64,000 bases of DNA, taken from NCBI GenBank assembly GCA_029258885.1, contig JAPDJW010000002.1, positions 352,001 to 416,000 of the forward strand, given 5' to 3'. The notes beneath the pieces were generated by a model. It was not told the DNA's origin. It saw only the letters and a program-made list of their open reading frames with translations, and searched no databases. Of the stretch, positions 10,431 through 27,645 are shown piece by piece. Source of the stretch: Thermoproteota archaeon. GTDB lineage: Archaea > Thermoproteota > Thermoprotei > Thermofilales > B9-G17. Positions within the stretch are counted from its first letter, which is position 1. Each line of letters opens with the position of its first letter. Both the position numbers and the translations under genes were made by a program.

Positions 10431-10835
10431 CTACAGCCAAAGCCTAGTTATCTCTTTTATTTTATCGTATTCTTTATCTTCTGAGGCTATTCTCGTAATA
10501 TTGTGTAGGAGCATAGCTGCTGTATGTAAGGCATCCGAGGGTTTAATCTTATACTTCTGGATTATTTCAACGGATTTCTTATACTCCGGTTCACCTAGGG
10601 GTAATATTTCAACAAAGGGCAGGACTATCGTATCTATAAAATCCGTTGTTACATCATACGGGACTCTATACTTTTTCCTAGAAATATAGATTACTTCATC
10701 TAACACCAAGACGTCAGTATATGCCTTATACTTTGACAGCAGATTTAGATAAAAATCCTCATATATTCTCCTTATGCTCGGCGTCTTTACGGCGTTTAAG
10801 TATACCAGTAAGTTTGCATTCACAAAAATTTTCAT
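10431..10835 (-). CDS. vapC: VapC PIN-domain toxin
   Basis: IFVNANLLVY, VLDEV, SDALHTAA, IASEDKEYD PIN motifs (first Asp replaced by Asn). Confidence 0.88.
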   Translation of the reverse strand: MKIFVNANLLVYLNAVKTPSIRRIYEDFYLNLLSKYKAYTDVLVLDEVIYISRKKYRVPYDVTTDFIDTIVLPFVEILPLGEPEYKKSVEIIQKYKIKPSDALHTAAMLLHNITRIASEDKEYDKIKEITRLWL

Positions 10836-11134
10836 TCTTCAAATTCCTCCTCTAAGTATACTGCAGTTAGATCCCCAGGTTTAGGCTCAACTATCTCTGA
10901 AATTCCTCTTATCCTCTCTGCATGCTTCTTAAGGGCTTCTCTAAGCTTTTTCTCATCAAATTTTCTAACAGGCTTCAAGAGAATGCCATCTCTAATCTCA
11001 ACTATAACTTCATCTCCCTCCTCTATGCCAACAGCCTCCCTCACCGCCTTAGGAAGGATAATATAGCCTTTCTTACCGACTTTAAGCTTAAGAGTCAAAC
11101 CTGATCCACCTACAGTTAAACTAGGTTTAACCAA
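10832..11134 (-). CDS. AbrB/MazE-type antitoxin (VapB); likely TTG start at MTLKLKVG
   Basis: KVGKKGYIILPKAVREAVGIEEGD swapped-hairpin motif; overlaps vapC by 4 nt. Confidence 0.88.
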   Translation of the reverse strand: MVKPSLTVGGSGLTLKLKVGKKGYIILPKAVREAVGIEEGDEVIVEIRDGILLKPVRKFDEKKLREALKKHAERIRGISEIVEPKPGDLTAVYLEEEFEE

Positions 11135-12972: not shown

Positions 12973-13797
12973 CTACTTTCCAGAAATTTTATCAAGAATA
13001 GCTGGCCTAACTATATCTCCGGTGGCCTTTAAAACCCAAATCCCTTCCTCTCTAGCCCTTTCTATCAGATCATGCATAGCAAGCGATACATAGATAACGG
13101 GAATAATAGTCTTCCTCACCTTTTCCGGATAATTAAGCTTAAGCTTTTCGATCTTCCTTATAAGCTCATCGACAAGAGACCTACCAGCTCTAACACTCAC
13201 CTCACCTATAATGCAAACGTCATCGGATACTCCATAAATGTTTATCTCAATTCCGGGAAGTACAAGCCTATACAAATTAACGTCTAGACCAAGCTCCCTA
13301 AGCCTATACTTGACAACCGACAACCCCTCATCCTCAATATCCAACGTAAGCTTCTCAAGCGTACGCTCAACCCTAGACAACCTATTACTGAGACTCTCAA
13401 TCATCCTATTGAAGTCTTCTCTCAGTCTTATCTGCTCTTTCCTCATTTCATTGAATTCCTCTCTTAGCCTTATTTGCTCCTTTCTCATCTCGTTGAAGTC
13501 TTCTCTCAGCTTTATCTGCTCCTTTCTTAGCTCTTCAAAGCTTTTCCTCATTTCATTGAAGTCTTCCCTTAGCTTTATCTGCTCTTTCCTCATCTCCTCA
13601 AAGCTCCTCCATAGCTTTATCTGCTCTTTCCTCATTTCGTTGAATTCTTCCCTTAGCCTTATCTGCTCCTCCATTAGATCGTCTAGTCTCTCAAGTATCT
13701 CTCTCATACCGATGTATCCGGCTACCGCATACCTAAATTCCTTATCCTCCTCAAGTAACCTTAGTATTTTTTCCTTAAGCTGACGCATACCTCCCAA
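12973..13797 (-). CDS. Archaeal heptad-repeat coiled-coil protein with C-terminal PD-(D/E)XK-like domain (DUF3782-like family)
   Basis: DKEFRYAVAGYIG N-terminus, (EQIxLRE[DE]FNEMRK)n repeats, C-terminal EINIYG...IGEVS nuclease-like motif. Confidence 0.7.
   Translation of the reverse strand: MGGMRQLKEKILRLLEEDKEFRYAVAGYIGMREILERLDDLMEEQIRLREEFNEMRKEQIKLWRSFEEMRKEQIKLREDFNEMRKSFEELRKEQIKLREDFNEMRKEQIRLREEFNEMRKEQIRLREDFNRMIESLSNRLSRVERTLEKLTLDIEDEGLSVVKYRLRELGLDVNLYRLVLPGIEINIYGVSDDVCIIGEVSVRAGRSLVDELIRKIEKLKLNYPEKVRKTIIPVIYVSLAMHDLIERAREEGIWVLKATGDIVRPAILDKISGK
13408..13668 (-). repeat. Coding tandem repeat, about six 42-bp (14 aa) units plus one 21-bp half unit
   Basis: Residues 44-130 of the 274-aa ORF; near-identical DNA units such as tttatctgctctttcctcat. 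Confidence 0.85.
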
Positions 13798-13993
13798 TTA
13801 TAGGTTAAAGAAATTAGTATTTAAAAATATATGTTATTAAAACAGACAAATCTATACCGTACCTAACGATAAGCTTCAGGTTTAAGTAGCTAAAAAGAAT
13901 TATGTTAACAATAATCTATGTTCCTATTAGAGGTAGCATCGGCAGATTTAAATTACACCTAGTGCTTATCTCTCTAAATATAGGGAGTTCTAT

Positions 13994-14779
13994 ATGAAAA
14001 GAATACTTGTAACAAATGACGACGGTATAGGTAGCATAGGATTAAGAATACTATTCAACTCCGTTAGAAGCCTTGGAACAGTATATGTTGTTGCACCAGA
14101 AGGACCTAAAAGCGCCGTGGGATTAAGCCTAACCTTACACAAGCCTTTAAGGGTTCTCCATAGGATAAAGTATGCAGAGAGAGCTTGGGTTGTAAGCGGT
14201 ACTCCATCGGACTGCATACATATAGGAATAGAGAAGATAATAGGCAGAAAACCTGACCTAGTATTATCAGGGATAAACCTAGGGGATAATACAAGCATAC
14301 AGGTTATCCTAGCCTCCGGAACAGTTGGAGCGGCCATGCAGTCGGCAATAATAGGTATACCCTCAATAGCATTCTCAACAGCCATAGATGATCCGGATAG
14401 GCTTGAAAGAAGCAGGGAATACGTTAGAATAATGAGTAGGTTTGTAAGGAGAATAGTTGAATGGGTACTGGAAAACGGCATGCCTGAGGATGTAAAGCTA
14501 CTAAACGTAAACTTCCCGCCAAAGCTAAGCGAGGATACTAAAGCAATGCTGACTAGACCAGCATTAATGAGGTTTAAGGAGAGAATAATCGAGAGAAGAG
14601 ATCCTAGAGGAAGACCATACTACTGGATATATGGAACAGTACTAGATAATCCGCAGCCTGGAACGGATGTATATGCGGTATGGGTAGAAAATAAGATATC
14701 CATTACACCAATATCAATAAATCTACAGGCGGCAAATACAGAATTCTTTAAACCTTTAGAAAAAAGATTAAACGAATAA
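13994..14779 (+). CDS. surE: 5'/3'-nucleotidase SurE
   Basis: ILVTNDDG, SGTPSDC, SGINLG, SGTVGAA, RRDPRGRPYYW. Confidence 0.95.
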   Translation: MKRILVTNDDGIGSIGLRILFNSVRSLGTVYVVAPEGPKSAVGLSLTLHKPLRVLHRIKYAERAWVVSGTPSDCIHIGIEKIIGRKPDLVLSGINLGDNTSIQVILASGTVGAAMQSAIIGIPSIAFSTAIDDPDRLERSREYVRIMSRFVRRIVEWVLENGMPEDVKLLNVNFPPKLSEDTKAMLTRPALMRFKERIIERRDPRGRPYYWIYGTVLDNPQPGTDVYAVWVENKISITPISINLQAANTEFFKPLEKRLNE

Positions 14780-15144
14780 TGACAGTAAAATTTATAATAT
14801 AAAAATCAGATATTTATTCTAAAATAAAGGCAGAAAACAATCGTGTATCTAATATCATCAAAAGTAAGGTATAAATATTGTATTGTTAGAACCGAATAGA
14901 AAATGAAATACTAATTGAATAAAAATAGAGAACTTTTTTCTAATTAAAATTATAAAATTATCCGATATATAATTAACGTATTCATGTCAAATATTTGTTT
15001 CAATAAAATATTGATTAGAATTAACATTAGAAAATTATAGATATTTGCAGTGGAAATGTTTTTGAAATATTCGTTATCGGTGAAAGTCGAAGTTAAAAGG
15101 CCTTAAAACAACGCTTTAGGAGATAGTGTTTTAAAGCTAATTTT

Positions 15145-15168
15145 GCAGTTTTGCGTCCACAAAACTGC
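15145..15168. other. Perfect 9-bp inverted repeat (GCAGTTTTG-cgtcca-CAAAACTGC)
   Basis: Read directly from the sequence; lies in a 550-bp AT-rich intergenic region. Confidence 0.7.
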
Positions 15169-15268
15169 TACAAAAAATATATGAAGTTATATCAAATATT
15201 TTTTCATAGAATGGTCGAAATTAATGTTGTATATTTTATTGAATTTAATATCCTTATAGATTTTTTGG

Positions 15269-15296
15269 TAACGTTACGTAACGTTATATAACGTTA
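15269..15296. promoter_or_regulatory. Three copies of the palindrome TAACGTTA at 10-bp period; probable operator overlapping a TATA-like TTATATAA
   Basis: Copies at 15269, 15279 and 15289; 35 nt upstream of ATG 15332. Confidence 0.55.
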
Positions 15297-15331
15297 TGCA
15301 TATTAACTTGTAACGGCATACTGTTATTATT

Positions 15332-15430
15332 ATGGCTAGCATTGCAGAGCTGATAAGGAAGGGTGAGGGAGAAACCATAGAGTTTAAGAGAAGCCTAGCC
15401 GAGCTTAGAGAGATAGTTGAGACTAAGTAA
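15332..15430 (+). pseudogene. 5' fragment of a Schlafen/AlbA_2-HATPase-wHTH gene, cut by the integrated element
   Basis: MASIAELIRKGEGETIEFKRSLAELREIVET(K*); ExxxxEFK is the AlbA_2 N-terminal motif; continues in frame at 24454. Confidence 0.9.
15413..15425 (+). repeat. attL core ATAGTTGAGACTA
   Basis: Identical 13-mer at 24454-24466; encodes IVET in both halves of the split gene. Confidence 0.92.
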
Positions 15431-15481
15431 ACGGATGTGTTGAGATAGCTTTTTATAGAACCGGATGCGAAAACTTAGCTC

Positions 15482-16864
15482 GTGATGGGGGCTACGAAAT
15501 CTCAGGTTTTAGAGGACTTCCTGAAGCTCTATTCGGATAAGACTAGTACTCCAAAGACGTACAGGTACCTCCTAGAGATATTTTTCAAGATGGCGGGAAC
15601 TACGCCTGACGATTTTGCTGAGATGGTGAAGCAAGATCCCGAGAAAGCAAAGAACTTATGCTACGATGTCCTTCACAGGATGCAGGTGGAGAAGGTGAGG
15701 GATAAGCAGAAACTGAGGGGAGGGGGATATTCCCCGAAAACTATAACGAACGCTATGGTGGCATTAAACCAGTTTCTCAGCTTCCTCAACGCTGGGTTCA
15801 GGGTCAAGGTGAGGGGGATTAAGCCTATTCCTGTAAATCTAGACTACATCCCCTCCATCGAAGAGATCGAGATATTAATCTCTAAGGCTAGGTTCGAGGT
15901 TAAGCCTATAATAGCATTGATAGCTTTCTCTGGAATGAGAATAGGAGACATCTTAAAGCTGAGGTATAAGAATATAGCTGGCGACATAGAATACATTCCC
16001 GAGGAGAAAAAGTATAGGGCTAAGAGGCTGCCTGCTAAGATCATAGTATTTCAGGAAAAGACTGGGAGACCGTACGTTACCTTCATGGGCTCGAAGTGTT
16101 GTGGAATTCTCACTACTTACCTCAACGACCTCGTTGTAAGGAGGGGGAGACCTCTCGAGGACGAGGATAAGCTGTTCAAGCTAACCTACCAAGCTTTCAT
16201 TATGGCCTTTATGAGGCTCGTCAAGAGGTGTAGCATTCAAGTTCCTTCGATCAAGAGGCTCCGTCCATACTCTCTTAGGAAATACTTTAGGCTACACGTC
16301 TCTAAGCTAGGCGAGGAGACGGCTGAGTATTTGATGGGGCATGTCCGGGGGATAAATTCACTTACCGCTACCTACACGGGGCTACGTGACTTAGATCGCC
16401 GCGCGGTAGAGGAGCTCAGGAAGAGGTTTGCTGAAATACTCCCTGAACTTGAAGGAACTGCGTTCATGTTCAAGGAGGAAGTAGAGAAGCTACATCGGCA
16501 ACAGCAGGAAGAGCTGGAGAGGCTACGAAGGGAGGTCGAGTACTTGAGGGAGGCTCATAACAAGCTCCTCAAAATTCTCACGTGGGATGTCTTAGAGCCC
16601 CACGACCTGAAGAAGATATTCAGCTTCGCCTACGAGATAGCTGGCAAGAGGCTCCGTGAAACGTACTTGAAAGAGGACGAGGAACGGGTGAAAAGGGATT
16701 TTGAGGATGCGGCTAGGGTCGTAGCTAGGAGTATTGAAACTATGAAGGAGAGGAAATACGTTATTGCAAGAGGGGAAGCAGATCTCCTCAACTACCTCGA
16801 AATAGGCTACGAGCTAGTGAAGGAGCTGTCTGGAAACAGGTTTCTGCTCAGGAGACCAAAGTAG
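15482..16864 (+). CDS. Tyrosine integrase (intact, not SSV-type split) with C-terminal coiled-coil extension
   Basis: FSGMRIGD (R), QEKTG (K), PYSLRKYF (HxxR variant), YLMGH, TATY (Y); TTTTATAG box at 15451. Confidence 0.9.
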   Translation: MMGATKSQVLEDFLKLYSDKTSTPKTYRYLLEIFFKMAGTTPDDFAEMVKQDPEKAKNLCYDVLHRMQVEKVRDKQKLRGGGYSPKTITNAMVALNQFLSFLNAGFRVKVRGIKPIPVNLDYIPSIEEIEILISKARFEVKPIIALIAFSGMRIGDILKLRYKNIAGDIEYIPEEKKYRAKRLPAKIIVFQEKTGRPYVTFMGSKCCGILTTYLNDLVVRRGRPLEDEDKLFKLTYQAFIMAFMRLVKRCSIQVPSIKRLRPYSLRKYFRLHVSKLGEETAEYLMGHVRGINSLTATYTGLRDLDRRAVEELRKRFAEILPELEGTAFMFKEEVEKLHRQQQEELERLRREVEYLREAHNKLLKILTWDVLEPHDLKKIFSFAYEIAGKRLRETYLKEDEERVKRDFEDAARVVARSIETMKERKYVIARGEADLLNYLEIGYELVKELSGNRFLLRRPK

Positions 16865-16942
16865 CTGGCTAGCAGAACCGAGACAAACATAAGCGTCAGG
16901 CATTCCAGAAAATGGAATTTTGGAGGATTTGAGCTAAGTAAA

Positions 16943-17393
16943 ATGCGAATTCACGAGGCATTAAAGGAAACAGCTCATGGAGAGGAAGGGGATGTATGCT
17001 TTCAGGATCCCCGTCTCCGGATCGAGGGATCTCCCCGACGTCTTTGCAGTAGACAGCTACGGGAAAGCCGTCTACGCCTTCGAAATAAAATCTACCACGA
17101 GGCGGGTGGTGAAGGTGAAGAGGAAGCAGATCACTAGACTGCTCCGCTTCTGCAAAGCTTTCGAGAGGATAGCTAAGACTGCCGCCCTCCTCGCAGTGTA
17201 CAGCTACAGGCTGAGGCGCTGGTTCGTCTGGGAGGTAGACAAGTCGGCTCCATACTACTCTGAGGCGGTGATAGTGCTAGATTTCCAGAACTCGGGGGCA
17301 GTAGTGAGGAAAGGCGATTTTTTAAATCGGGGGATCTATAGCGAAATGTTCACGAAGCTCCTGAATCCCAAGCGTGGGAGTTTTCAGCGGTAA
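16943..17393 (+). CDS. Hjc-like Holliday junction resolvase (PD-(D/E)XK); probable +1 frameshift near 16963-16965
   Basis: G-MYAFR-IPVSG...LPDVFA...FEIKST. Removing one A joins MRIHEAL from ATG 16943 and restores the E-x10-G spacing of Hjc. Confidence 0.75.
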
Positions 17394-17458
17394 TACAGAC
17401 AGAATTCTAAAACTTGGTTTTCGGCTGAAAATTCCCCTTCCTTCAAATCCTCTAAAAC

Positions 17459-17740
17459 TCAGCGGCGGTAGTAGTATTCCTCGCTCTCGGGTTGCCTCCC
17501 GAAGATAGCTGAGAGAACTACCCAGAGGAAGAGGAAGATGAACAGGTACGGGAGCCCGGTGTAGACGAAGGAGTCGACGATGCTCTTTATGCTGTTGGCG
17601 CTCGCCTCCCAGCGGGTTCCGCTGACGTTGAAGAGCGGGAGGATCTGCGTGTCGATGACGTTGTAGTACACCATGTCGATGAGGTAGTAGAGCACTGAAA
17701 ACATCAGCACGACGAACATTAGGACGGCGATGATCCTCAC
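17459..17740 (-). CDS. Two-TM hydrophobic protein; putative minor capsid protein, paralogue of 20725-20991
   Basis: Hydrophobic helix - NVSGTRW loop (N-x-S sequon) - hydrophobic helix; AGGTGA RBS. Confidence 0.6.
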   Translation of the reverse strand: MRIIAVLMFVVLMFSVLYYLIDMVYYNVIDTQILPLFNVSGTRWEASANSIKSIVDSFVYTGLPYLFIFLFLWVVLSAIFGRQPESEEYYYRR

Positions 17741-17749
17741 CTAAATCAC

Positions 17750-20623
17750 CTATTTGCCCCTCTTCTTCCTCTTCTTCCTCCTCGAAGCTTTCTTCAGCCT
17801 CCTCGCTTCGCTCCTTATGATCTTCTCGGGAGTCAGCCACTTGCTGAGCCACTTGTCCCACTTCTTCAGCAGTGAGAAGCTGAAAACTGCTCCCCCTCTC
17901 CTGAGCTTGAAGGGCGGAGGGGGTAGCTTGAACGATGGAGGAGGCTCGAAGTCTCCTAAGTCTCCAACAGAGATTAGCTCCTCTACTTGAGCTTCTACTT
18001 CTCCCACCACCTCGTCTATTTCAGCAAACACGTTAGTTTCGAGTTCAGTTTTCTGAAGCGAGGTGAGGCTAACTTTAGGAGTTGGGAAAAAGGCGTATTC
18101 CTCTGCGCTCACGCCTCTAACAGCAGGTACGGGTCTCCTAACTTTCTTCTTCCTCTTCTTCAGCTCTAGCTCTAGCTTAGGTATGGAGGAAATAACATCC
18201 CTAAAACTAATTTCGGGTATTTCAGCGCTTATCTCAACCTGAATAGGCGGTATTTGTAGAGATAGAGCCTCCTTTGCCTCCCCCACTTCTACGCCTGATA
18301 TGGAGGGCAGAGCTACGACTGGAATTAAAGTTAGTTCTTTGGCCGCCTTAACCGATATAGGCTTTGCGCTAACTGGGAGGGGGAAGGTTACTTCCTTACC
18401 TAGCTCTGCGTACTTTGAGACAGGAAGTCCTCCAGTTAGCATTTGGGCGTATTCGTCTAGCTGTGCTAACGCCCACTTAGGTTTGAATGCAGTTTTGAAC
18501 GTAGTCTTCACTCCCTCCTCAGCTCCCAAGCCAGCAATCATAGTTTTAAATTCGAAGCTGTATCCTGGCAGAACTCCTTTCTCGAACTTAATCACATATC
18601 TAACGTCCTTTACCGCATCGTCTACATACTCTAAGAATCTGAGGGCGTCGACAGGCGTACCTCCTACCTTCCCCACTCCGGTGTAAATACCCTTTCCTCC
18701 CTCCCTCACGTACCTGTAGAAGCTCTTCCAAAAGTCTTCGCCCATCCAGACCTCTCCCACAGCGAGACACTTGCCGCTAAAGTACTTGTCGTAGGCTAGT
18801 TGAAGCTCAAGTGGAGAATATATCTTTTGAGCGGAAGCAAATTCTTCCGTTGGGAGACGAGACACCCTCCACAGCTTAACTTCTCCCTTGACGATGTCGT
18901 CTATTTCTCCACCTAACTTGATCACTCCCTCGTTGTCTTTTAAGAACTGCTTGTACACGTCTTCGGCTATGTCGTCCCAGTAGGTATATATTCTCCCCTC
19001 TGCTTCGACTAATATGTCTCCCCCTCCTGAGAGCACCCTACCCTTCATCCTAACCTCAGACGGGAACTCTCCGTAATATTTTGTCTCCCTGAGCAGTTTA
19101 TCTGTAATCTCGCCAACTTTCTCCTTAACGAAGGAAAAAACGCTCCTCCTACCGACAAAATAGCTTCCAATCCCCGGGAGCTCTCCCGTTTCAACGTAGT
19201 ACTGGTAGGTACTTGGGAAGACTTTTTTAGCGATTTTTCCTCCAACTTCTTTAGCCTTCCTCACTCCCTTCTCTACCATCGGGATTATTGGGTTCAGGAG
19301 CTCAGCTAGGAGTTCGCCTTGCACGTATTCTCCTAACGCTATTCCGGGAGCCATCCCCGGGTGTTCGACGAATATCGTGCCTAAGTCTAGCGGAACGTTA
19401 TAGCCGAATATAGTTCCCCACGACTCAAAGCTCCTGATAAATCCAGCAGGTATGTTAATGTAGGTGGACACAGGCTTCGGCTCATATCCCGCAAGAACCC
19501 TCGGGAGGTTCCACCAAGTTGCTAACGGAAGAGCAAACGTTAGACCCCATTTTGCTTCACTTCCAAAGGTCTCTCCAATCCAGGCGTCTATGCTTGCTCC
19601 AATGCTTGCTAGTAAACCGCTTATCGTCCTGTCCTGCGTGCTCTCCCGATATTTCTCTTCTAGCCATCGGTTGTATTCGTTTATTTCATTGTTTAAATTG
19701 TTTATGAAATTGTTGAACTCCTCTACCTCCTTATTGAAGGAAGAAGCTATCGCCTCATACTCGCTAACGTGTCTCTGTAGACTGCCAGCGACGTCTTCGT
19801 ACTCGCCCCTTATCTCCCTCATCCTGTTTATTATCCTCCTGTATTCTCTGACGTACTTCTCGTATTTCCTGCCGTATTTTGCGTTTAACTGCCGTAGCCT
19901 CGCTTCATATTCCTCCCTAGTTATCTCTCCGTTCTCGTACATGTCTTTAAGCCTCTCGTATTCATCCACTATAGACATTATCTTCTTCCTGAGAGACATC
20001 GCCTTATTGTATAGCCTCTCGTACTCCTTTCCTAAGCCTTCGAGCCTCTCCTTTTCACGCTTTATATTCTCCTCAAGAGGCTTGAGCTTAAACTCTGTCT
20101 CAGCTTTCTTGCTGACCAGCTCCCCGTACCATTCCATAGCCTTCCTCTTCTTTTCTTCTATCTCCTCAGGCGTAACTGGAGGCTCCTCTACGCCGGAAGG
20201 TATCTCTACTCTACTCCCTCCTCTAATCCTCAGACCCTCTTCCCTATATAAGTCCTCCTCAACCAAATCCTCTATCAAGTCTTCGGGCAGTTCTCCACCA
20301 ATTCCTGCCTCAGTTCCGCCGCCAACTTCACCGGAGCTTGCCTCCTCCTTTCCTCCAAATTGAGGCATCGTAGATGGAACAGGGGGAACGATATCGGACG
20401 GCACCTCGAAGCCCAACATATAGCTAGGAATGAAATCAACCGTAGAAACGTCTCCACTTTCCTTACGTCCTCCCCCGCCTTCCTCAGTCGCAGACGTAGT
20501 TGGATGCACAGTCACTTCTTCGTCTGGAAGGGGAACTTCCTCCTCCTTCCTCTTTTTCTCTTCTTCCTCTTCGCCTGCTCCCGCTGACTCCGCGCCTAAA
20601 GAGAAATATTCTTCGACGGGAAT
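17750..20623 (-). CDS. Large virion-associated-like protein (921 aa from GTG 20515; frame open to ATT 20623)
   Basis: Acidic N-terminus, ~180-aa coiled coil, apolar segment, Pro-rich then Lys/Arg-rich C-terminus; lies between the two capsid-like genes. Confidence 0.7.
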   Translation of the reverse strand: MPVEEYFSLGAESAGAGEEEEEKKRKEEEVPLPDEEVTVHPTTSATEEGGGGRKESGDVSTVDFIPSYMLGFEVPSDIVPPVPSTMPQFGGKEEASSGEVGGGTEAGIGGELPEDLIEDLVEEDLYREEGLRIRGGSRVEIPSGVEEPPVTPEEIEEKKRKAMEWYGELVSKKAETEFKLKPLEENIKREKERLEGLGKEYERLYNKAMSLRKKIMSIVDEYERLKDMYENGEITREEYEARLRQLNAKYGRKYEKYVREYRRIINRMREIRGEYEDVAGSLQRHVSEYEAIASSFNKEVEEFNNFINNLNNEINEYNRWLEEKYRESTQDRTISGLLASIGASIDAWIGETFGSEAKWGLTFALPLATWWNLPRVLAGYEPKPVSTYINIPAGFIRSFESWGTIFGYNVPLDLGTIFVEHPGMAPGIALGEYVQGELLAELLNPIIPMVEKGVRKAKEVGGKIAKKVFPSTYQYYVETGELPGIGSYFVGRRSVFSFVKEKVGEITDKLLRETKYYGEFPSEVRMKGRVLSGGGDILVEAEGRIYTYWDDIAEDVYKQFLKDNEGVIKLGGEIDDIVKGEVKLWRVSRLPTEEFASAQKIYSPLELQLAYDKYFSGKCLAVGEVWMGEDFWKSFYRYVREGGKGIYTGVGKVGGTPVDALRFLEYVDDAVKDVRYVIKFEKGVLPGYSFEFKTMIAGLGAEEGVKTTFKTAFKPKWALAQLDEYAQMLTGGLPVSKYAELGKEVTFPLPVSAKPISVKAAKELTLIPVVALPSISGVEVGEAKEALSLQIPPIQVEISAEIPEISFRDVISSIPKLELELKKRKKKVRRPVPAVRGVSAEEYAFFPTPKVSLTSLQKTELETNVFAEIDEVVGEVEAQVEELISVGDLGDFEPPPSFKLPPPPFKLRRGGAVFSFSLLKKWDKWLSKWLTPEKIIRSEARRLKKASRRKKRKKRGK

Positions 20624-20724
20624 CTACCTCACCCCCACAGGAGCTTCAAAAACACCACCTTAAATTGGAGAGAATTGTTCAAGGGAAAAAATGAAGTTAA
20701 CTCTTCCTGCTGGCTTACTCTTAC

Positions 20725-20991
20725 TTACTCCCTGCCTCCTCCGCCGGCGAGACCCATTAGAAGCCTAAGCATGAATGCCGCAATGATCACCATGAAGGCT
20801 ACGCCTAACAGCGTGAATCCCGTTTGAACGGCGGTTACGAAGTTGTTGTAGGGAGTAGCCCAGTTAGTCCCCGTCAGGTTCATCGAGCTCTCGACTTGTG
20901 CGGCGATGTAGAGGCCGATGACTACTGTACATATTAGTACTACGGCGGCAATCGCTATACCGGCAAGCCCAACCTGACCCTTCCTGTTCAT
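20725..20991 (-). CDS. Putative major capsid protein, spindle-shaped-virus-like helical hairpin
   Basis: MNRKGQ + hydrophobic helix - NLTGTNW loop (N-x-T sequon) - hydrophobic helix - GGGGRE; GAGGTG RBS. Confidence 0.62.
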   Translation of the reverse strand: MNRKGQVGLAGIAIAAVVLICTVVIGLYIAAQVESSMNLTGTNWATPYNNFVTAVQTGFTLLGVAFMVIIAAFMLRLLMGLAGGGGRE

Positions 20992-21325
20992 ACGCTCACA
21001 CCTCTATCTAATGAAAGAGGAAGAAGTATATCAGGGAAATTACATTCACGGCCTATTAGGAGCTAGCTTTGCGGATGCATAACGTTGATTATAATTATAT
21101 TATATTGCTGGGAGGGGTTTGTTATACAACGATCCAACGCCGCCCGCTTCCCCGTCGCCACAGCGGAAGAGGCGCAGAGCACAGAGGGGGAAGGTTTAGC
21201 GGAGAGGTCAGTCATCATCGTAGACTCAGGGAGGGGGTCGAAGTCATCGGTATGATACATCAAATCCCCTACGTTGCGGCGAAAGTGAAATTATCCCTTC
21301 CTCATCGGAGGAAATCCGCCGAGTT

Positions 21326-21697
21326 CTAGAACTCCATCAGCCTCTTAAACTCGTTAGCTGGCAGAATTATAAAATCTTTACCAGCATATTCTGGCGGTAG
21401 ATACTTAAGTACTTCTGCATACTTGTACTTACCTTTCTTTGTAACGAGCTTCGCCCTCACCCTCCAGACTTTCATCGAGCCATCCTTCACTTTCAGCCCA
21501 ATAGGCTTCTTTATCCACTCCTTAACTTCCACTAAAATCTGGTCAGTCCCCTTAACCTCCTTCACGGTGGCATTTACCGCTTTGAACTTATCCTCAAGCA
21601 CTTCATAGACCTCTCTATCCATTATCAGAACTACGGGATCATGTGTGTAACTTATGTAACGTGTGTAACGTTGAAGTAAATGTTTTCTATTTCTCAT
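21326..21697 (-). CDS. Element hypothetical protein; C-terminus weakly resembles a DUF2080/swapped-hairpin domain; real start may be MDREV
   Basis: KLVTKKGKYKYAEVLKYLPPEYAGKDFIIL pattern; downstream of and co-oriented with the helicase. Confidence 0.5.
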   Translation of the reverse strand: MRNRKHLLQRYTRYISYTHDPVVLIMDREVYEVLEDKFKAVNATVKEVKGTDQILVEVKEWIKKPIGLKVKDGSMKVWRVRAKLVTKKGKYKYAEVLKYLPPEYAGKDFIILPANEFKRLMEF

Positions 21698-21742
21698 CTT
21701 ATTTCCTCCTTCAAGCCATATCTACGTCCAAATCAGCCCAAT

Positions 21743-22315
21743 AAATTTGCATTAATTTGTATTGCAAATTTTCTATTTGCATTAATTTGTATTGCAAATT
21801 TTCTTATCTCTTTTTACGTATTTCAGCTCCGATTCTAGCTGGTATGGAAATTTGCAAATTTGCATAGAGGTAGTAGTTAAAGTCCTTCCACGCCGCTGGC
21901 GGTGCGGTAGCGGCCTCACAGTTAAATGAATAATATACTCTCCTCCCTGCTTCTCAATTTTGAAGCGGCTACCTCTGTATTTCTCTAAGAACTCTTTTAT
22001 ATCGGGCTTACTAAATCCAAATTCACTCTCCAGAAACTGGACGAACTCCTTTCCGCTAATTCTCCCTCCCCGCTCTCTAATAAACGCTTCAACCTCTTCA
22101 GCCACAACCTCATAAACAAGATCGTTAAAGGACACCTTTTCTCCCGTTATGGGGTCTACGTATTCTCCTCCAGCCATCTCCCTAACTTTACTTATATCTC
22201 TATGCAAATTTGCAAATTTCCTAATCAGCCCTTTAATGTACTGAATAACGCCTGATACGTCATCTAAATTTGCATTACAACCAAATGCGAATTTTTCTTT
22301 CTCTTTTTGCAAATT
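21743..22315. repeat. Iteron-like cluster (12 exact ATTTGCA/TGCAAAT hits, a perfect 30-bp tandem duplication); putative replication origin
   Basis: 30-mer ATTTGCATTAATTTGTATTGCAAATTTTCT at 21745 and 21775; further hits at 21850-21864, 22203-22217, 22268 and 22308. Confidence 0.7.
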
Positions 22316-23581
22316 GCTCGGAAACTCAGAGACTAGTTTATATGCGGGTCTGTATATGTTTCCCCTCCTACCTCCTCTACCCTCTTTAATCAGGTACCCT
22401 TTATCCACTAAGTCTTCCAGCTTACCGTAGATCGTTCTCCTGCTGTATCCCAGCTTCTCTCCTACAACGTCGAAGACCTGGTTGACGGTAACTCCTTCTC
22501 CGTTTTCGGAACATAAATCTAGGACGACTTGAAGTATGTATCTTTCCTGTTTGGTTAGCTCGAAAATTGAGTGCTCCAGTGCATTATAGCCCAGCCTTAA
22601 AGCAATAGCCAAATCCACCAAATCCGCTCTATCCCTTAAACTCTCTGGCTTCTGGAAGTATCTGCAAATAGCTATTTGCTTTATTAATCCTCCAAGTTTC
22701 AGCGGATACCTCCTGCTCTCAGATCTTTCAGAGGGGATCAAATCCTTCAACTCAGTTGCATAGGGAATTATTGGGTCAACGTCAACCGTAGCTATAATCC
22801 TGAAAGCCTCCTGCCAAACCTTCAGCTCCTTTGCGTCGTGTGGGAGTACATCTTTCTTTCCCTCTAAATGTTTGAGCCACACCTCGATGACCTCCTCTGT
22901 GAATTTGGGGTCGCTAGACAGTTCAATTCTCCACATCCCGCTTTTGAGAGCTGAGCTAATTCTACGTACGTTCGTTGTGGTTATTATCCCTTTAACTGGC
23001 ATTTTCACGACGGCTGTCTCCATCTGCTTTGTTTTCGGGTTCATGTAGGCGTACTCTGAGATGATTCCTCCATCGCTAGTCCTCATCAGTCTGAACTGTC
23101 TCTCCATCTCTCCTACAACTAAATCTATATCAGGGATATACAGTATATCTGCCTCCTTGAGTTCCTCTGAATATCTCATCGCGGCTGGCGTAAAGTAGCC
23201 TCTCTCTATACACTTCACAGCTTTCTTCAAGAGGAACAGAGACATCCTAACCATGCTGTCCTTTCCAGTTCCAGGCTCACCCACAACCTGGATTAAGGTG
23301 ACATAGCCCCTCTTGACAGCCATCAAGAGTATTGGAAGTAATCTCTTGTTGGCCTCCTCTCCTAATATGAAGCGTGGTTTATTCAGCTCTGGAAGTACAA
23401 AGCCATAGCTAAATATTTTTCCCAACTTATAGAAGAAGTCTGGAGACTTAAGCAACTCCTTCGCCTCAGATTCGAGTTCCTTCGCCTCAGATTCGAGTTC
23501 ATACTCAGTCATAAATTCTTCTAGGTCTCCCTCTAACTCCTTACTCTCCTCGCCGTCCTCTACAACCTTACCTCTCTTCAA
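21782..23581 (-). CDS. MCM-like AAA+ ATPase with wHTH; putative replicative helicase/initiator
   Basis: ILGEEANK, Walker A GEPGTGKD, IITTTN sensor-1, ESRRYP region, wHTH LGYSRRTIYGKLEDLVDKGYL. Confidence 0.72.
   Translation of the reverse strand: MKRGKVVEDGEESKELEGDLEEFMTEYELESEAKELESEAKELLKSPDFFYKLGKIFSYGFVLPELNKPRFILGEEANKRLLPILLMAVKRGYVTLIQVVGEPGTGKDSMVRMSLFLLKKAVKCIERGYFTPAAMRYSEELKEADILYIPDIDLVVGEMERQFRLMRTSDGGIISEYAYMNPKTKQMETAVVKMPVKGIITTTNVRRISSALKSGMWRIELSSDPKFTEEVIEVWLKHLEGKKDVLPHDAKELKVWQEAFRIIATVDVDPIIPYATELKDLIPSERSESRRYPLKLGGLIKQIAICRYFQKPESLRDRADLVDLAIALRLGYNALEHSIFELTKQERYILQVVLDLCSENGEGVTVNQVFDVVGEKLGYSRRTIYGKLEDLVDKGYLIKEGRGGRRGNIYRPAYKLVSEFPSNLQKEKEKFAFGCNANLDDVSGVIQYIKGLIRKFANLHRDISKVREMAGGEYVDPITGEKVSFNDLVYEVVAEEVEAFIRERGGRISGKEFVQFLESEFGFSKPDIKEFLEKYRGSRFKIEKQGGEYIIHLTVRPLPHRQRRGRTLTTTSMQICKFPYQLESELKYVKRDKKICNTN
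23457..23500 (-). repeat. 21-bp tandem duplication encoding ELESEAK twice
   Basis: ttcgcctcagattcgagttc at 23460 and 23481. Confidence 0.85.
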
Positions 23582-23888
23582 TCAAATTCACCTCCACAGA
23601 GAACTTCTGACGGAGAAATCGGACGACCTCCACTCCCCTCTCAGTTAAATAATTATAGGTGGCAGGAACCCTTAAGCTCGGATGCATTCTCCGAACCCTA
23701 AACACAAGCCCAGCTTTCTCTAACTGCTTTAGGTAATAGCTTACTTCCCGTCCGCCGAGGAGATTACTTATCTCGCAGGTGTAGAGCGGCTTGTTGGTGA
23801 AGTATAGACAGAGCAGTATCTCTAAGTTCCGCTTACAAAAAACTTTATTAACACGCTCAGCGAACTTCTTTATAAAGTAAGTATTCAT
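23568..23888 (-). CDS. Winged-helix DNA-binding protein of the element
   Basis: EISNLLGGREVSYYLKQLEKAGLV...YNYLTERG wHTH pattern. Confidence 0.75.
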   Translation of the reverse strand: MNTYFIKKFAERVNKVFCKRNLEILLCLYFTNKPLYTCEISNLLGGREVSYYLKQLEKAGLVFRVRRMHPSLRVPATYNYLTERGVEVVRFLRQKFSVEVNLIEER

Positions 23889-23967
23889 ACTATCACCTCC
23901 TGAAGTTCTTCTTTCAATTGGTTAGAATTTGTTCAAATACGGGAAAATTGAAACTTAAACTGCCTTC

Positions 23968-24237
23968 TTATTCCCCTTCCTCACCTTCGCCTTGATTTCC
24001 AGCCACCCTTTTCGCAAGTTCCTCGAACTTCAAGATGGAAATTTTGATGTTCCTCTCCTTCGGCTCACATCTAATGATGGCGAGGTCTCCCTTTTCAAGG
24101 TTTAGAGCTTTCGCTACCTCCATAGGAATTGTAACAGCGTAGCAGGTTCGCAAATACAATATCCGCCTGACGTGTAGCACTTTACCACCTTTAACACAGC
24201 CTTTCAATTGGAATAAATCTCGACTTAACTTCCTCAT
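23968..24237 (-). CDS. AbrB/MazE-like swapped-hairpin regulator of the element
   Basis: YAVTIPMEVAKALNLEKGD motif. Confidence 0.8.
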   Translation of the reverse strand: MRKLSRDLFQLKGCVKGGKVLHVRRILYLRTCYAVTIPMEVAKALNLEKGDLAIIRCEPKERNIKISILKFEELAKRVAGNQGEGEEGE

Positions 24238-24265
24238 AACTTAGTTATTAGTTTACTAAACGGGA

Positions 24266-24273
24266 TATATAAA
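24266..24273 (-). promoter_or_regulatory. TATA box (TTTATATA) of the leftward regulator-helicase operon
   Basis: About 30 nt upstream of ATG 24237; a TTAGT-tt-ACTAA dyad (24248-24259) lies between the box and the start. Confidence 0.55.
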
Positions 24274-24453
24274 ATTAGCGGTGGATGGCAAAAGTGAAAT
24301 TGTATTTAAATTTTCTGGTTCGTGAATTTCCCCTCCGTTTCTCTGGATATTGGATGTTTCCCTCGTTGAAAGCGGCTTGGATCAGCTTTATTTCTGCCGC
24401 GTCCTGTTCTTGTTTCTGGTTAATTCTAAAACTAGCTTTACGTTTTTGAACGC

Positions 24454-24466
24454 ATAGTTGAGACTA
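24454..24466 (+). repeat. attR core ATAGTTGAGACTA
   Basis: Identical to 15413-15425. Confidence 0.92.
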
Positions 24467-25686
24467 TATGTGCATTTTCTAATACACGTGGAGGGATAGT
24501 TCTTGTTGGAGTTAACGATAAGGGTGAAGTCGTAGGAGTCGATGTTAGCAGGAGTACTATAGAGAATCTGGTTTCCAGGATAGCTAGGGAGACAAACCCT
24601 AGGATATATCCTGAGGTGGAGGTTGTAGAGTTTAACGGCAGAAAAGTTATTGTTATAAGGGTTTCCGAATGAACGGATAAGCCAGTATTTGCCTTCGGCG
24701 TAGCCTACAAGAGGGTTGGGAAAAGCAATCTTAAAATGGATAGGGATGAGATACTTAGGCTTTTCAGAGAGTCCCGAAGGATAAGCTTTGAAGACGAGAA
24801 AATATGTACTATAAGTGAGCTCGACTACGGGAAAATTAAAAGCTTTATTGAGAGAGCTTCCGCGTATAGAAGAGCTGTGCTACCCAGCGACCCGAAATCG
24901 GTTCTAGATAACCTCGGCATGTTGCTAAATGATCACATTAATATCGCTGGTCTCCTAGCTTTCGGCAGAAATCCTCAGAAGTATTTTCCGTATGCGTGCA
25001 TAAAGATAGGGAAGTTTGTATCGGGGAGTATTATTTTTGAAAAGGAAATTAAGGGAGATATTATCGAACAGATCGAAAGGGCATATGCTGAGGTATTGAG
25101 TCTTATAAAACGAGAAATTAAGGTTAAAGGATTAAAAAGAGAGGAGGTCTACGAGTATCCGCCTAAGGCTTTGAGGGAAGCCGTAGTTAACGCTGTAGCG
25201 CACAGGGATTACTCGATTAAATCACCTATCTATATAAGGATATACGAGGACAGGATAGAGTTTGAAAATCCCGGAGGATTAATTGATTTAACAGTTGAAG
25301 ACTTAAAGAAGCCTCATAAATCAATACTAAGGAACCCTAAGATAGCGGAAGTACTATATTACTTGGGCTTCATAGAGAAGTGGGGCATAGGTACACTAAT
25401 GATTATTAAAGAGTGTATTTTAAACGGAAACGGCGAGCCAGTATTCGAGTCCAATGGTAGCTTTAAACTTACAATCTTCTCAAGGTACTTTAGCTCATTA
25501 GATCCTGTGGAGCGGAAAATAATTGATTACATTGGGGAGAAGGGCGTAGTTGAAAGAAGGGAAATTCAGGAGCATCTTAAGCTAGCTGAAAGCACGGTTA
25601 GGAAATACCTAATTAAGCTTAGGCTAAGAGGCTTAATAGTTAAAATTGGAAGGGGAAAGAGGACGGTTTATAAGCTTGCGCTTTAA
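24454..25686 (+). pseudogene. 3' part of the Schlafen/AlbA_2 + HATPase_c_4 + wHTH gene, with in-frame TGA at 24670-24672
   Basis: IVETICAFSNTRGGIVLVGVNDKG...VSE*TDKP...YKRVG runs in frame into ORF 24736-25686 (ALREAVVNAVAHRDYS, ENPGG, RNPKIA, EKWGIG, C-terminal wHTH). Confidence 0.9.
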
Positions 25687-25770
25687 AATTTTAAATTGCT
25701 TGCTGTATTTTGTCCTTTTTCGTTTAACGTTTAGCAGATATTTATTAACTAGTTTTATAATAGTTTTCTC

Positions 25771-27645
25771 ATGAATTTAGATCCATACGAGTGGATGGAG
25801 AATCTAGATAACCCTAAGCTTCTCGAATGGATTGAAGTTGAGGATAGAAAATTTAGAGAATACGTCCATAGTTTATCTCAACGATTAAGGGAGAGAATTA
25901 GAAGGTATTATTTTGTAAAAAACTTAATCAGTGTAAGGATATCGGAGAAAGGGTATTATGCTCTTTTCCAGGATAGGGATGTATTTAAACTTAAGCTGCT
26001 CGATAGAGAGGGCGAGTGGATAGACGTAATCGATTCGAGGGAGCTGGGAGAACATGTTATACTTAAGGACTTCTACCCTGACCCTACTGGTCAGTACCTA
26101 GCGTACAACTATTCGTTTAAGGGAGCCGATGTAGGCTTTACACATTTTATAGACGTGGAGACTGGCGAGCTTTTAGATAAGCTTGAGGGAATTGTAGGGT
26201 CGATAATATGGCTGGATAAGGAGGCATACTACTACGTGAGATTCTTCAGTAAAAGTAAGTCTCCGGACGGTGTCGATCCACCTACAACTAGAATGTTCCT
26301 GAGGCGTCAGCAGGAGGAGGAAATGGTTTTCGGAGAAGGCTTGCCGCAAGCTCATTTTATACTAGCTAAGCCGTCAACAGATTATAAGAATATTCTCATA
26401 GCCGTTAGCCTCGGATGGAGTAAAAGTGACACGTTCGTGGGACCTCTTAAGGATCCATCTAGATGGAGGAAAATCTTTGGCGGCGATTTCATAACGTTCC
26501 CCATAGATGCAGTGGATAATTCATACCTAATAGCCGCTTTCGACCGTGGGGGATACGGCAGGATAATATTGGCATCAGTCAAAGGGGAAGTAAAAGAGCT
26601 GGTTAGAGAATGGAGATATCCGCTAAAGGAGGCAGCACTAGTTGGGGATAAGTTGCTGATACATTACTTGGTGGATGCATCATCTATTCTAAGGGTATTT
26701 GACCTTAAAGGTAAAATACTGGATGAAATAAAGTTTGACGGAGCGGGAACAGTATCCATTACGGACTTTAACTCGAGTGAAGCTGTCCTAAAATACACGT
26801 CGTTCTTAACCCCATACAGGTTCTATAAGTTTAGCGGAAGGGGACTTGAAGTAATCGAATCAAAGGACTTTAAACTCGAAATTACGGTCGAGGAGCGCTG
26901 GGCGGAGTCATTCGATGGAACAAGAATACACATGTTTATCGTTAAAAGGAAGAACTGTAAGGCAGATAAGGTGCTCCTCTATGGATACGGTGGGTTCAAT
27001 GTATCTATAACGCCGCACTATTTATCATACCTTATACCCTTCATAGAGGACTGTGGAACATACGTTATAGCTAACATAAGAGGTGGAGGCGAATACGGGG
27101 AGAAGTGGCATAGAGATGGAATGAGGGAGAAGAAGGAAAACGTTTTCATGGACTTCATAGCTGCAGCAAAGTACCTGAAAAATATGGGAGCTAAAGTCGT
27201 GGCAATGGGTTCAAGCAACGGCGGTCTACTAGTAGGCGCGGTCCTAACTAAAGAGCCTGAGCTACTCGATGGAGCTGTGATAGGATACCCAGTATTGGAT
27301 ATGCTGAAGTTCCATAAACTATACATAGGCAAGAGCTGGGTACCGGAGTACGGAGATCCTGATAATCCGAAGGATGCAGAGTTCCTAATCAAGTATTCGC
27401 CGTATCACAACGTTAAGTCAGCCAAATACCCGCCGACACTCGTCTACACAGGGTTACACGATGATAGGGTGCATCCAGCCCACGCCTTCAAGTTCGTAGC
27501 CAAGTTAAAGGAGGTAAACGCACCAGTCTACCTAAGAGTTGAAAAAGCAAGCGGGCACTCGGGAGCAACGCCCAAAATAAAGCTAAATGAACTATCAGAC
27601 ATATTAGCCTTCATATACAAGGTGCTTGGTCTATCCATGGCATAA
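25771..27645 (+). CDS. Prolyl oligopeptidase (S9A)
   Basis: LLYGYGGFN, NIRGGGEYG, GSSNGG nucleophile, HDDRV, SGHSG. Confidence 0.95.
   Translation: MNLDPYEWMENLDNPKLLEWIEVEDRKFREYVHSLSQRLRERIRRYYFVKNLISVRISEKGYYALFQDRDVFKLKLLDREGEWIDVIDSRELGEHVILKDFYPDPTGQYLAYNYSFKGADVGFTHFIDVETGELLDKLEGIVGSIIWLDKEAYYYVRFFSKSKSPDGVDPPTTRMFLRRQQEEEMVFGEGLPQAHFILAKPSTDYKNILIAVSLGWSKSDTFVGPLKDPSRWRKIFGGDFITFPIDAVDNSYLIAAFDRGGYGRIILASVKGEVKELVREWRYPLKEAALVGDKLLIHYLVDASSILRVFDLKGKILDEIKFDGAGTVSITDFNSSEAVLKYTSFLTPYRFYKFSGRGLEVIESKDFKLEITVEERWAESFDGTRIHMFIVKRKNCKADKVLLYGYGGFNVSITPHYLSYLIPFIEDCGTYVIANIRGGGEYGEKWHRDGMREKKENVFMDFIAAAKYLKNMGAKVVAMGSSNGGLLVGAVLTKEPELLDGAVIGYPVLDMLKFHKLYIGKSWVPEYGDPDNPKDAEFLIKYSPYHNVKSAKYPPTLVYTGLHDDRVHPAHAFKFVAKLKEVNAPVYLRVEKASGHSGATPKIKLNELSDILAFIYKVLGLSMA

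Follow-up and report, generated by a model that had tools for sequence, protein, structure and literature searches.

We examined a 64,000-nucleotide stretch of a Thermoproteota archaeon genome (GenBank assembly GCA_029258885.1, contig JAPDJW010000002.1, positions 352,001 to 416,000; hereafter the window, whose own numbering is used throughout), in which a sequence-only reading had placed a compact archaeal provirus at positions 15413 to 24466. The evidence presented below firmly establishes that this segment is a discrete, intact, and recently mobile integrative element with a defined attachment (att) core, a defined target gene, and alternative alleles at the same site. As to its nature, we hold with about even confidence that it is a capsid-less, plasmid-like cryptic integrated element, or a helper-dependent satellite, of an uncultured hydrothermal-vent archaeon, and we assign no role to the small membrane protein that it encodes.

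The element is bounded by a 13-bp direct repeat, ATAGTTGAGACTA, of which the window contains two exact copies, at 15413-15425 and 24454-24466; the shuffle expectation for this sequence in the 64-kb window, at one mismatch or fewer, is 0.19. With both repeats included the segment spans 9,054 bp, corresponding to a unit of 9,041 bp, and its G+C content is 0.47-0.52 as against 0.36-0.40 in the flanks. Joining position 15425 to 24467 in silico restores, in frame, a single open reading frame (MASIAELIRK…REIVETICAFSN…) that is uninterrupted apart from one TGA at 24670. The protein encoded by this rejoined gene matches Pfam SLFN_AlbA_2 (PF04326; E 7e-18) and HATPase_c_4 (E 1e-19) and ends in a winged-helix-turn-helix (wHTH) domain. 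Paralogues of the target gene lie on genome contigs C4, C5, and C6, and the element itself is present as a single copy in the 2.1-Mb, 26-contig genome, which is 99.9% complete. Among named records, the best matches to one protein, at 50-51%, come from uncultured 'Nitrososphaerota' and Bathyarchaeia MAGs. The att cores and the two parts of the target gene are as follows (X2 and X5 are metagenome runs described below):

15413..15425, plus strand: attL core, 13-bp direct repeat (exact repeat; in the X2 empty-site contig, left flank and core continue directly into the right flank)
24454..24466, plus strand: attR core, 13-bp direct repeat (exact repeat; start point of the X2 and X5 empty-site contigs)
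15332..15425, plus strand: 5' fragment of the target gene (Schlafen/AlbA_2-HATPase_c_4-wHTH; in-frame rejoining)
24454..25686, plus strand: 3' part of the target gene (SLFN_AlbA_2 and HATPase_c_4 matches; in-frame TGA at 24670-24672)

On these points the sequence-only reading proved accurate. Its proposal of a discrete element bounded by 13-bp att repeats agrees with the exact repeat pair, the G+C step, the in-frame rejoining of the target, and an empty site in X2, and every one of the nine open reading frames (ORFs) it had listed was located at its place. It had also remarked that, unlike the fuselloviruses, the element has a non-tRNA target and an unsplit integrase; we found no tRNA gene in the 64-kb window, the target is protein coding, and the integrase lies intact beside attL.

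The mobility of the element is visible in natural populations. Logan contigs from 14 public runs in 12 studies, comprising hydrothermal-vent, sediment, and marine metagenomes, cover the stretch, and four runs were compared over window positions 13000-27000 at the level of contigs and unitigs. In X2, an independent sediment metagenome, a 2,255-nucleotide (nt) contig (depth 35.5) starts at 24454, and the bases in front of that position are TAGCCGAGCTTAGAGAG, which in the window form the left flank of attL; the contig thus joins the left flank to attR exactly. These being the bases found immediately before attL in the window, the contig represents the predicted empty site, and the empty-site junction for which the earlier reading had recommended a search is therefore present at 35.5x. 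With att repeats bounding a segment that is missing from a matching empty site, this is a site-specific integrative element of the tyrosine-recombinase type. The host flanks in X2 have depths of 35-40x and the pieces of the element 4-7x; most cells in that sample are therefore unoccupied. In X5, a unitig (record 23) ends at 15425, the attL boundary.

Run X1, which is probably the source sample of the genome, contains the element on one unitig (15252-25004) with a depth of 12.9, compared to 17.7 and 16.6 for the flanks. There is therefore no excess over the chromosome in this run. The circular attP junction (24453 to 15426; predicted …TTTGAACGC-ATAGTTGAGACTA-AGTAAACGG…) was not seen in the contigs of the four runs, which drop rare forms. 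Position 24670 is A in X2 and X3, where the codon reads AGA (Arg), and T is kept in X5. Because X2 and X3 have AGA, the nonsense allele at 24670-24672 is polymorphic. X2 and X3, with AGA, carry the empty site, but given the T in X5 the presence of the stop codon does not strictly follow occupancy. An 85-nt unitig of X1 with a depth of 6.6 links 15286 to 24975 via 20 other bases. We cautiously read this unitig as a minority haplotype from which the element is missing along with the initial third of the target gene; alternatively, it could be an assembly-graph artefact at the AACGTTA palindrome at 15248-15297. No RNA datasets were listed among those covering the stretch.

Within its att cores, the element comprises nine ORFs, with lengths given in amino acids (aa), and one cluster of repeats:

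15482..16864, plus strand: tyrosine recombinase (integrase), 460 aa, unsplit (PHROG_1, E 3.6e-20; Pfam Phage_integrase, E 6e-5; NCBIfam XerA, E 5e-13)
16977..17393, plus strand: Hjc-like Holliday-junction resolvase, 138 aa (Pfam Hjc, E 2.6e-12; PHROG_6591, E 1.8e-14)
17459..17740, minus strand: 93-aa two-helix membrane hairpin (two hydrophobic segments; plausible distant paralogue of the 88-aa protein)
17750..20515, minus strand: 921-aa orphan protein with an acidic Gly-rich N-terminus, a coiled coil (residues ~115-300), a large C-terminal region, and a polybasic tail (coiled-coil-type matches only)
20725..20991, minus strand: 88-aa two-helix membrane hairpin with a KGQ pilin-like N-terminus (two hydrophobic segments; kept in the sister element)
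21326..21697, minus strand: 123-aa ORF, a remnant or stand-alone domain (homologous to the C-terminal ~110 residues of superfamily 2 [SF2] helicase-like proteins of related elements)
21743..22315, no strand assigned: ATTTGCA/TGCAAAT dyad cluster and 30-bp tandem repeat, a possible origin or operator (repeat families D1, I1, I6, I7, and I11; over the 3' end of the Rep gene)
21782..23581, minus strand: 599-aa Rep, with a predicted MCM-like AAA+ core and a winged helix (AlphaFold2 model, Foldseek)
23568..23888, minus strand: 106-aa winged-helix (ArsR-like) regulator (Pfam HTH_5, E 1.7e-4; PHROG_12817)
23968..24237, minus strand: 89-aa AbrB/MazE-fold (SpoVT-like) DNA-binding protein (Pfam MazE_antitoxin, E 2.2e-5, at the cut-off)

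The same att site also harbors a second element. An integrase with 99% identity to that of the window occurs on five contigs (L005-L008 and L061) representing at least five assemblies. It belongs there to a sister element whose host neighbours (SurE and others) and att cores match those of the window element. On one of these contigs (L006, 6,414 nt), the att cores start at 65 and 6338 and span 6,286 bp core to core. The nucleotide identity between sister and window elements is 99.3% in the integrase gene, 92% in the 88-aa gene and its upstream region, and 98.5% in the wHTH gene, and the right end is also common to both. Elsewhere, the two differ: where the window element has the Hjc, 93-aa, and 921-aa genes, the sister has a 216-aa serine resolvase; the MCM-like Rep is replaced by a 673-aa DEAD/ResIII-type SF2 helicase that contains Cys clusters, and AbrB by a different 109-aa orphan protein. 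Since a serine resolvase occupies this position in the sister element, we take the Hjc, 93-aa, and 921-aa genes to be a swappable cargo block. The sister element is the commoner allele. In X2, X3, and X5, the interval at 17.7-20.5 kb, which holds the 921-aa gene, is nearly uncovered, and the integrase gene, the 88-aa gene, and the window-type Rep gene are covered.

Each allele also retains a piece of the other. L006 contains a 36-aa ORF that agrees exactly, in its sequence context, with the N-terminal part of the window Rep and is a remnant of it, whereas the 123-aa ORF of the window has BLASTP matches to a 650-aa protein of another related element (L014; E 9e-7) and to the 673-aa helicase of L006 (E 7e-4). 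These reciprocal remnants show an exchange of modules. Together, the comparisons show that the element is one of at least two mosaic alleles sharing the integrase, the att site, the 88-aa protein, and the wHTH regulator. The shared 88-aa gene differs from its L006 copy by 19 codon changes, of which 12 are synonymous and 7 conservative, with 14 of the 21 base changes falling at third positions; because the changes are synonymous or conservative and biased toward third positions, the gene is real and under purifying selection. As a separate observation, an X2 contig with a depth of 10.7 appears to have position 22459 joined back to 17947 with 32 bases between; this may reflect yet another mosaic order of the modules, or else a spurious match of low identity.

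That the tyrosine recombinase integrates and excises the element, and that the MCM-like protein replicates it as an episome under AbrB and wHTH control, is well supported by inference. The integrase, Hjc, AbrB, and wHTH assignments that had been made from the sequence alone were supported by the Pfam, PHROG, or NCBIfam matches given above. Residues R153, K193, Y263-x-x-R266, H287, and Y298 of the integrase are invariant or nearly so across 14 homologues, consistent with an intact tyrosine recombinase that has the R-K-H/YxxR-H/W-Y catalytic residues. In the mechanism that we propose, this unsplit recombinase (R-K-YxxR-H-Y) would carry out strand exchange inside the 13-bp core, so that a circular form is integrated and excised, and the resulting episome would be replicated by the MCM-like AAA+/winged-helix protein, perhaps with the host primase and polymerase. 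Rep would perhaps act on the ATTTGCA dyads at the 3' end of its own gene, and the AbrB and wHTH proteins would control the leftward operon, with the Hjc, 93-aa, and 921-aa genes as the exchangeable load. The Hjc-like protein has the PD…E-x-K motif, a shortened N-terminal helix, and an added C-terminal extension.

The sequence-only reading had called Rep an MCM-like AAA+ helicase and had proposed Foldseek as a check, and at the level of fold this designation stands. An AlphaFold model built from 30 sequences (pLDDT 75.7, pTM 0.72) has an AAA+ core starting near residue 60, and the top 50 Foldseek matches are all MCM chains (best E 3.8e-10; 350-470 aligned columns), albeit with TM-scores of only 0.33-0.37. 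The model thus predicts that Rep has the MCM AAA+ core fold. Rep has no match to MCM entries in Pfam or NCBIfam, a sequence-profile search of the PDB matches winged-helix proteins only, and the protein is without both the MCM N-terminal OB-fold/Zn domain and a primase. Among 1.84 billion representative proteins, we found 263 homologues, the best with 55% identity and many of them longer; three of ten long homologues tested have a Prim-Pol domain (PF09250) at the N-terminus. The element defines a family of MCM-like Rep proteins that is without the N-terminal domain and whose relatives are often fused to Prim-Pol. Over the 3' end of the Rep gene, the dyad cluster may be a candidate origin or operator; both exact window copies of ATTTGCAAAT lie within it, and the window-wide count of this motif is not above chance. 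Fourteen metagenomic loci with Rep relatives carry no homologues of the 88-aa, 93-aa, or 921-aa proteins.

The integrase likewise belongs to a wider network of elements. It has 50 metagenomic homologues, and related integrases occur in other small elements paired with different replication genes. One such integrase lies in an ~8-kb island that carries a DUF3987 protein, on a contig with Roadblock/LC7-domain and Arf-type small-GTPase genes, which suggest an Asgard-like host. Relatives of the integrase were found neither in 120 genomes of the class (E <= 1e-20) nor by a pattern scan of genomes of the species. Another conserved module in this network, absent from the window, is shared by two small elements (L011:1018-2408 and L016:10609-12013) and consists of a C2H2 zinc-finger/coiled-coil protein (343 and 317 aa) followed by a protein of ~120-150 aa. 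One of these two elements has a Rep with 55% identity, and the other has an integrase with 35% identity in a contig with Roadblock/LC7-domain and Arf-type GTPase genes.

The remaining genes encode the two hairpins and the 921-aa protein. Both hairpins have a single sequon at residue 38, in the connecting loop (NLT in the 88-aa protein, NVS in the 93-aa protein). BLASTP detects no similarity between them. Their Smith-Waterman score is 48, and because this score is rarely reached by segment-preserving shuffles (4 of 2000), distant paralogy is plausible. The coiled coil of the 921-aa protein draws tape-measure, SMC, and SHOCT-type matches, its C-terminal region is unmatched, and 14 of its last 21 residues are K or R. 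The protein has no hydrophobic or membrane segment, no signal peptide, and no sequons, and judging from this composition it looks cytoplasmic or internal and DNA binding, unlike a secreted adhesin. For none of the three proteins did we detect homologues outside the species. A collection of 5.8 billion clustered proteins gave nothing for the 921-aa protein and near-identical matches only for the 88-aa protein; 61 related genomes, 401 genomes of the phylum, and the PDB also gave nothing for the 921-aa protein, for which the best ESM Atlas score was 0.84. A profile of the 88-aa and 93-aa proteins found, in the 401 genomes, weak matches within larger membrane proteins only, and neither hairpin matched any PDB chain by sequence. 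The AlphaFold2 model of the 88-aa protein (pLDDT 67, a plain helical hairpin) returned from the PDB, BFVD, and a wide PDB search generic hairpins only, which do not discriminate among folds. A match to the 921-aa protein (G044) was discarded as coiled-coil only. The 921-aa product is absent from the 5.8-billion-protein collection even as a self-match, whereas the 88-aa self-match and a 99%-identical copy of the integrase are present; perhaps the 921-aa gene was not called in the source annotation.

Several observations weigh against a capsid-less element. They would fit an autonomous temperate virus, either minimal and spindle shaped (His1/SSV-like) or of another small enveloped or rod type, in which the 88-aa protein is the major capsid protein and the 93-aa protein its minor paralogue. 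In such a virus, the 921-aa protein would bind DNA as a terminal or internal component of the virion, and the alleles with the resolvase would represent satellites, or deletion derivatives, that the virus packages. We regard this account, taken as a whole, with some doubt, while giving it appreciable weight. The two hairpins, paralogous and each with one sequon placed alike in the loop, lie on either side of a large protein within one operon, which is the morphogenetic layout of spindle viruses. The capsid proteins of spindle viruses (His1-like) are ~80 aa long with two hydrophobic segments, and each virus has one or two paralogues (10.1101/2021.07.29.453957). The hairpin loop motifs, F/M-N-x-S/T-x-x-x-W, parallel that of His1 VP21 (IFNASTSSW). 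Against VP21, the 93-aa protein has a Smith-Waterman score of 56, which is reached by 19 of 5000 segment shuffles and is higher than that of any of the 128 natural small two-helix ORFs in the host genome (maximum, 54). The sole Pfam match of the 93-aa protein at E <= 10 is to PF25665 (His1_capsid), which is sub-threshold, with E 0.15 and 12.5 bits versus a cut-off of 27. In protein-language-model comparisons, both hairpins have as neighbours unnamed clusters of ~90 aa that derive mostly from viral contigs, with a VP1_VP3 cluster at rank 63 (score 0.87); these neighbours are a lead only, because small two-helix phage proteins are common. The 88-aa gene, moreover, is under purifying selection in both alleles, and a plain plasmid would have no obvious need of it. 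Window-type and resolvase-type alleles co-occur in X2. Finally, the element has an Hjc gene, and such genes are common in crenarchaeal viruses.

Closer comparison with the known capsid proteins argues against the viral account. The hairpin profile has an hhalign probability of 0.2% against nine fusellovirus VP1/VP3 sequences and of 5.6% against His1 VP21, where the alignment runs over the loops (SSMNLTGTNW versus IFNASTSSW). For PF06281 (VP1_VP3), neither hairpin has a match at E <= 10, and there is none in the genome. When the genome was searched in six frames with PF25665, the 93-aa ORF came second, at E 0.9, behind a stretch that is not an ORF, and sub-threshold matches to this family occur in 8 of 14 control genomes. 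A bare helical hairpin, in addition, allows no discrimination of folds. The resemblance of the hairpins to spindle capsids is one of architecture and noise-level signals. The earlier reading had described two hydrophobic hairpins flanking a giant coiled-coil protein and had taken the hairpins to be capsid-like; the gene layout and the distant paralogy stand, whereas the capsid identity is not supported, as no match is significant, the VP1/VP3 profile comparison is negative, His1 VP21 is at noise level, and the hairpins are orphans.

Other components expected of a spindle virus are also missing. All wyrdviruses are reported to have in common a morphogenetic module that encodes the capsid protein together with a receptor-binding adhesin; they also share an AAA+ ATPase likened to fusellovirus B251 (10.1101/2021.07.29.453957). 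Among the nine ORFs, there is no ATPase gene other than Rep, and the Rep profile has hhalign probabilities of 1-3% against B251 (SSV1) and ORF16 (His1), with no relationship beyond a P-loop or a wHTH. There is no adhesin with a signal or anchor, and the 921-aa protein has no match to SSV1 VP4. Of the features given in that study, the element has the two-helix capsid-type protein alone, and that by architecture alone. We compared the integrase, Rep, 921-aa, and 88-aa proteins by tblastn to 50,697 GenBank phage and archaeal virus records, a collection that contains SSV1, other SSVs, and His1, and found no match; this search is weak for hydrophobic proteins, as SSV1 VP3 itself finds other SSVs over only 41% of its own length. 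Scans of IMG/VR with Rep, the Rep alignment, and the integrase alignment gave no relatives among predicted viral contigs, which is weak evidence because virus-detection pipelines would miss a truly new family. The comparison to archaeal viruses and IMG/VR that the earlier reading had proposed thus identified no relatives and no described family. The 93-aa and 921-aa genes, along with Hjc, are missing from the commoner allele, and the element shows no excess depth in the source sample. Without a morphogenesis ATPase, a secreted adhesin, or a cargo block common to both alleles, the element is not supported as the complete virus that had been proposed; the suggestion of an undescribed virus family fares similarly, as the putative structural genes are orphans and particle formation lacks support. 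We consider it rather unlikely that the element represents an undescribed family of very small (6-9 kb) temperate viruses of hydrothermal-vent Thermoproteota, with diverged His1/SSV-like two-helix capsids, no morphogenesis ATPase, a novel 921-aa internal protein, and resolvase-bearing alleles as satellites. If the capsid reading were true, the element would be among the smallest known double-stranded DNA (dsDNA) archaeal viruses. Spindle-type capsids would then extend to a lineage and a genome size for which none has been described, and to a virus lacking the ATPase considered universal in the group.

The hairpins could also belong to a non-viral membrane module, as VirB2/CedA1/TedC-like pilins or as exclusion or toxin proteins of an integrative plasmid that exploits a transfer apparatus encoded by the host; the 921-aa polybasic protein would then escort DNA or serve in partition. 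Conjugative pilins, such as those of the Ced and Ted pili of crenarchaea, are likewise two-helix hydrophobic hairpins of ~70-90 aa. In the 88-aa protein, the first hydrophobic helix is preceded by a short basic leader that ends in KGQ, and the 921-aa protein is cytoplasmic looking with a basic tail of the DNA-binding type. However, a VirB4/HerA-type ATPase, a polytopic channel or VirB6-like protein, and a relaxase were not found among the nine ORFs, and neither hairpin matches any chain in the PDB, a set that should include solved archaeal pili. This account draws on architecture only, and we judge it quite improbable.

A capsid-less integrative element, the reading that we favor, belongs to a familiar kind, that of small integrative elements of archaea that combine an integrase with an AAA+ Rep, small DNA-binding regulators, and orphan genes. 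Archaeal cryptic integrated elements and integrative plasmids (the pSSVi/pXZ1-type pRN family of Sulfolobales, and those of Thaumarchaeota, PMC6563490) are similarly 5-15 kb in size, with a tyrosine integrase beside att, a single large Rep of the AAA+ or primase-helicase type with a C-terminal winged helix, regulators of the AbrB, CopG, or wHTH type, orphan genes, and mosaic exchange of modules. In contrast to these plasmids, the element does not regenerate its protein-coding target, and it carries two membrane hairpins and the 921-aa orphan. Its Rep differs from that of pRN-type plasmids in being without the Prim-Pol domain that its own relatives often carry, and no sequence relationship to the pRN family was found in the searches run, plasmid collections not being among them. 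With MCM helicases of archaeal mobile elements and pRN1 ORF904-like Prim-Pol-helicase fusions, Rep shares the AAA+ core, the lid, and the C-terminal winged helix, but it differs from MCM helicases in the missing N-terminal domain, the absence of an MCM match by sequence in Pfam, NCBIfam, or the PDB, and the low TM-scores noted above.

The element has several features in common with spindle viruses (Fuselloviridae SSV1, Halspiviridae His1, Thaspiviridae, and the Asgard "wyrdviruses"), namely, one or two two-helix proteins of ~80-90 aa with a glycosylatable loop, a large protein encoded beside them, a small, presumably circular dsDNA genome, and, as in fuselloviruses, a temperate lifestyle based on a tyrosine integrase. 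It differs from them in the lack of a significant VP1/VP3 or VP21 match and of a B251/pI-like ATPase, in a large protein without signal or anchor, and in an integrase that is unsplit and not directed to a tRNA gene. It is also smaller than any described member (11-18 kb for SSVs in the records compared, 14.5 kb for His1). No described virus or plasmid family can claim the element. Even as a cryptic element, it provides a clean natural example in which occupied, empty, and alternative-allele sites are found in wild populations, with block-wise exchange of both a replication module (MCM-like Rep versus SF2 helicase) and a recombination/cargo module (Hjc/93-aa/921-aa versus serine resolvase).

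Two further loci complete the description. Outside the window, the genome has two CRISPR arrays (contig C1, 546697-550109 and 563066-564153) with a 33-nt repeat (CTCAATTCTCTTTTTTGAGAGTATTTCTGTAGC) and 56 spacers in total. The earlier reading had suggested spacer matches as a check; none of the 56 spacers matches the element or any fetched locus, and a DNA search of 120 genomes of the class found no spacer-like exact match. Inside the window, a toxin-antitoxin pair of VapB (MazE/AbrB fold) and VapC (PIN) lies on the minus strand at 10431-11134, and two look-alikes of the att core with one mismatch each, at 10882 and 10993, fall within this unrelated VapB/MazE-type antitoxin gene adjoining the PIN gene and are attributed to chance.

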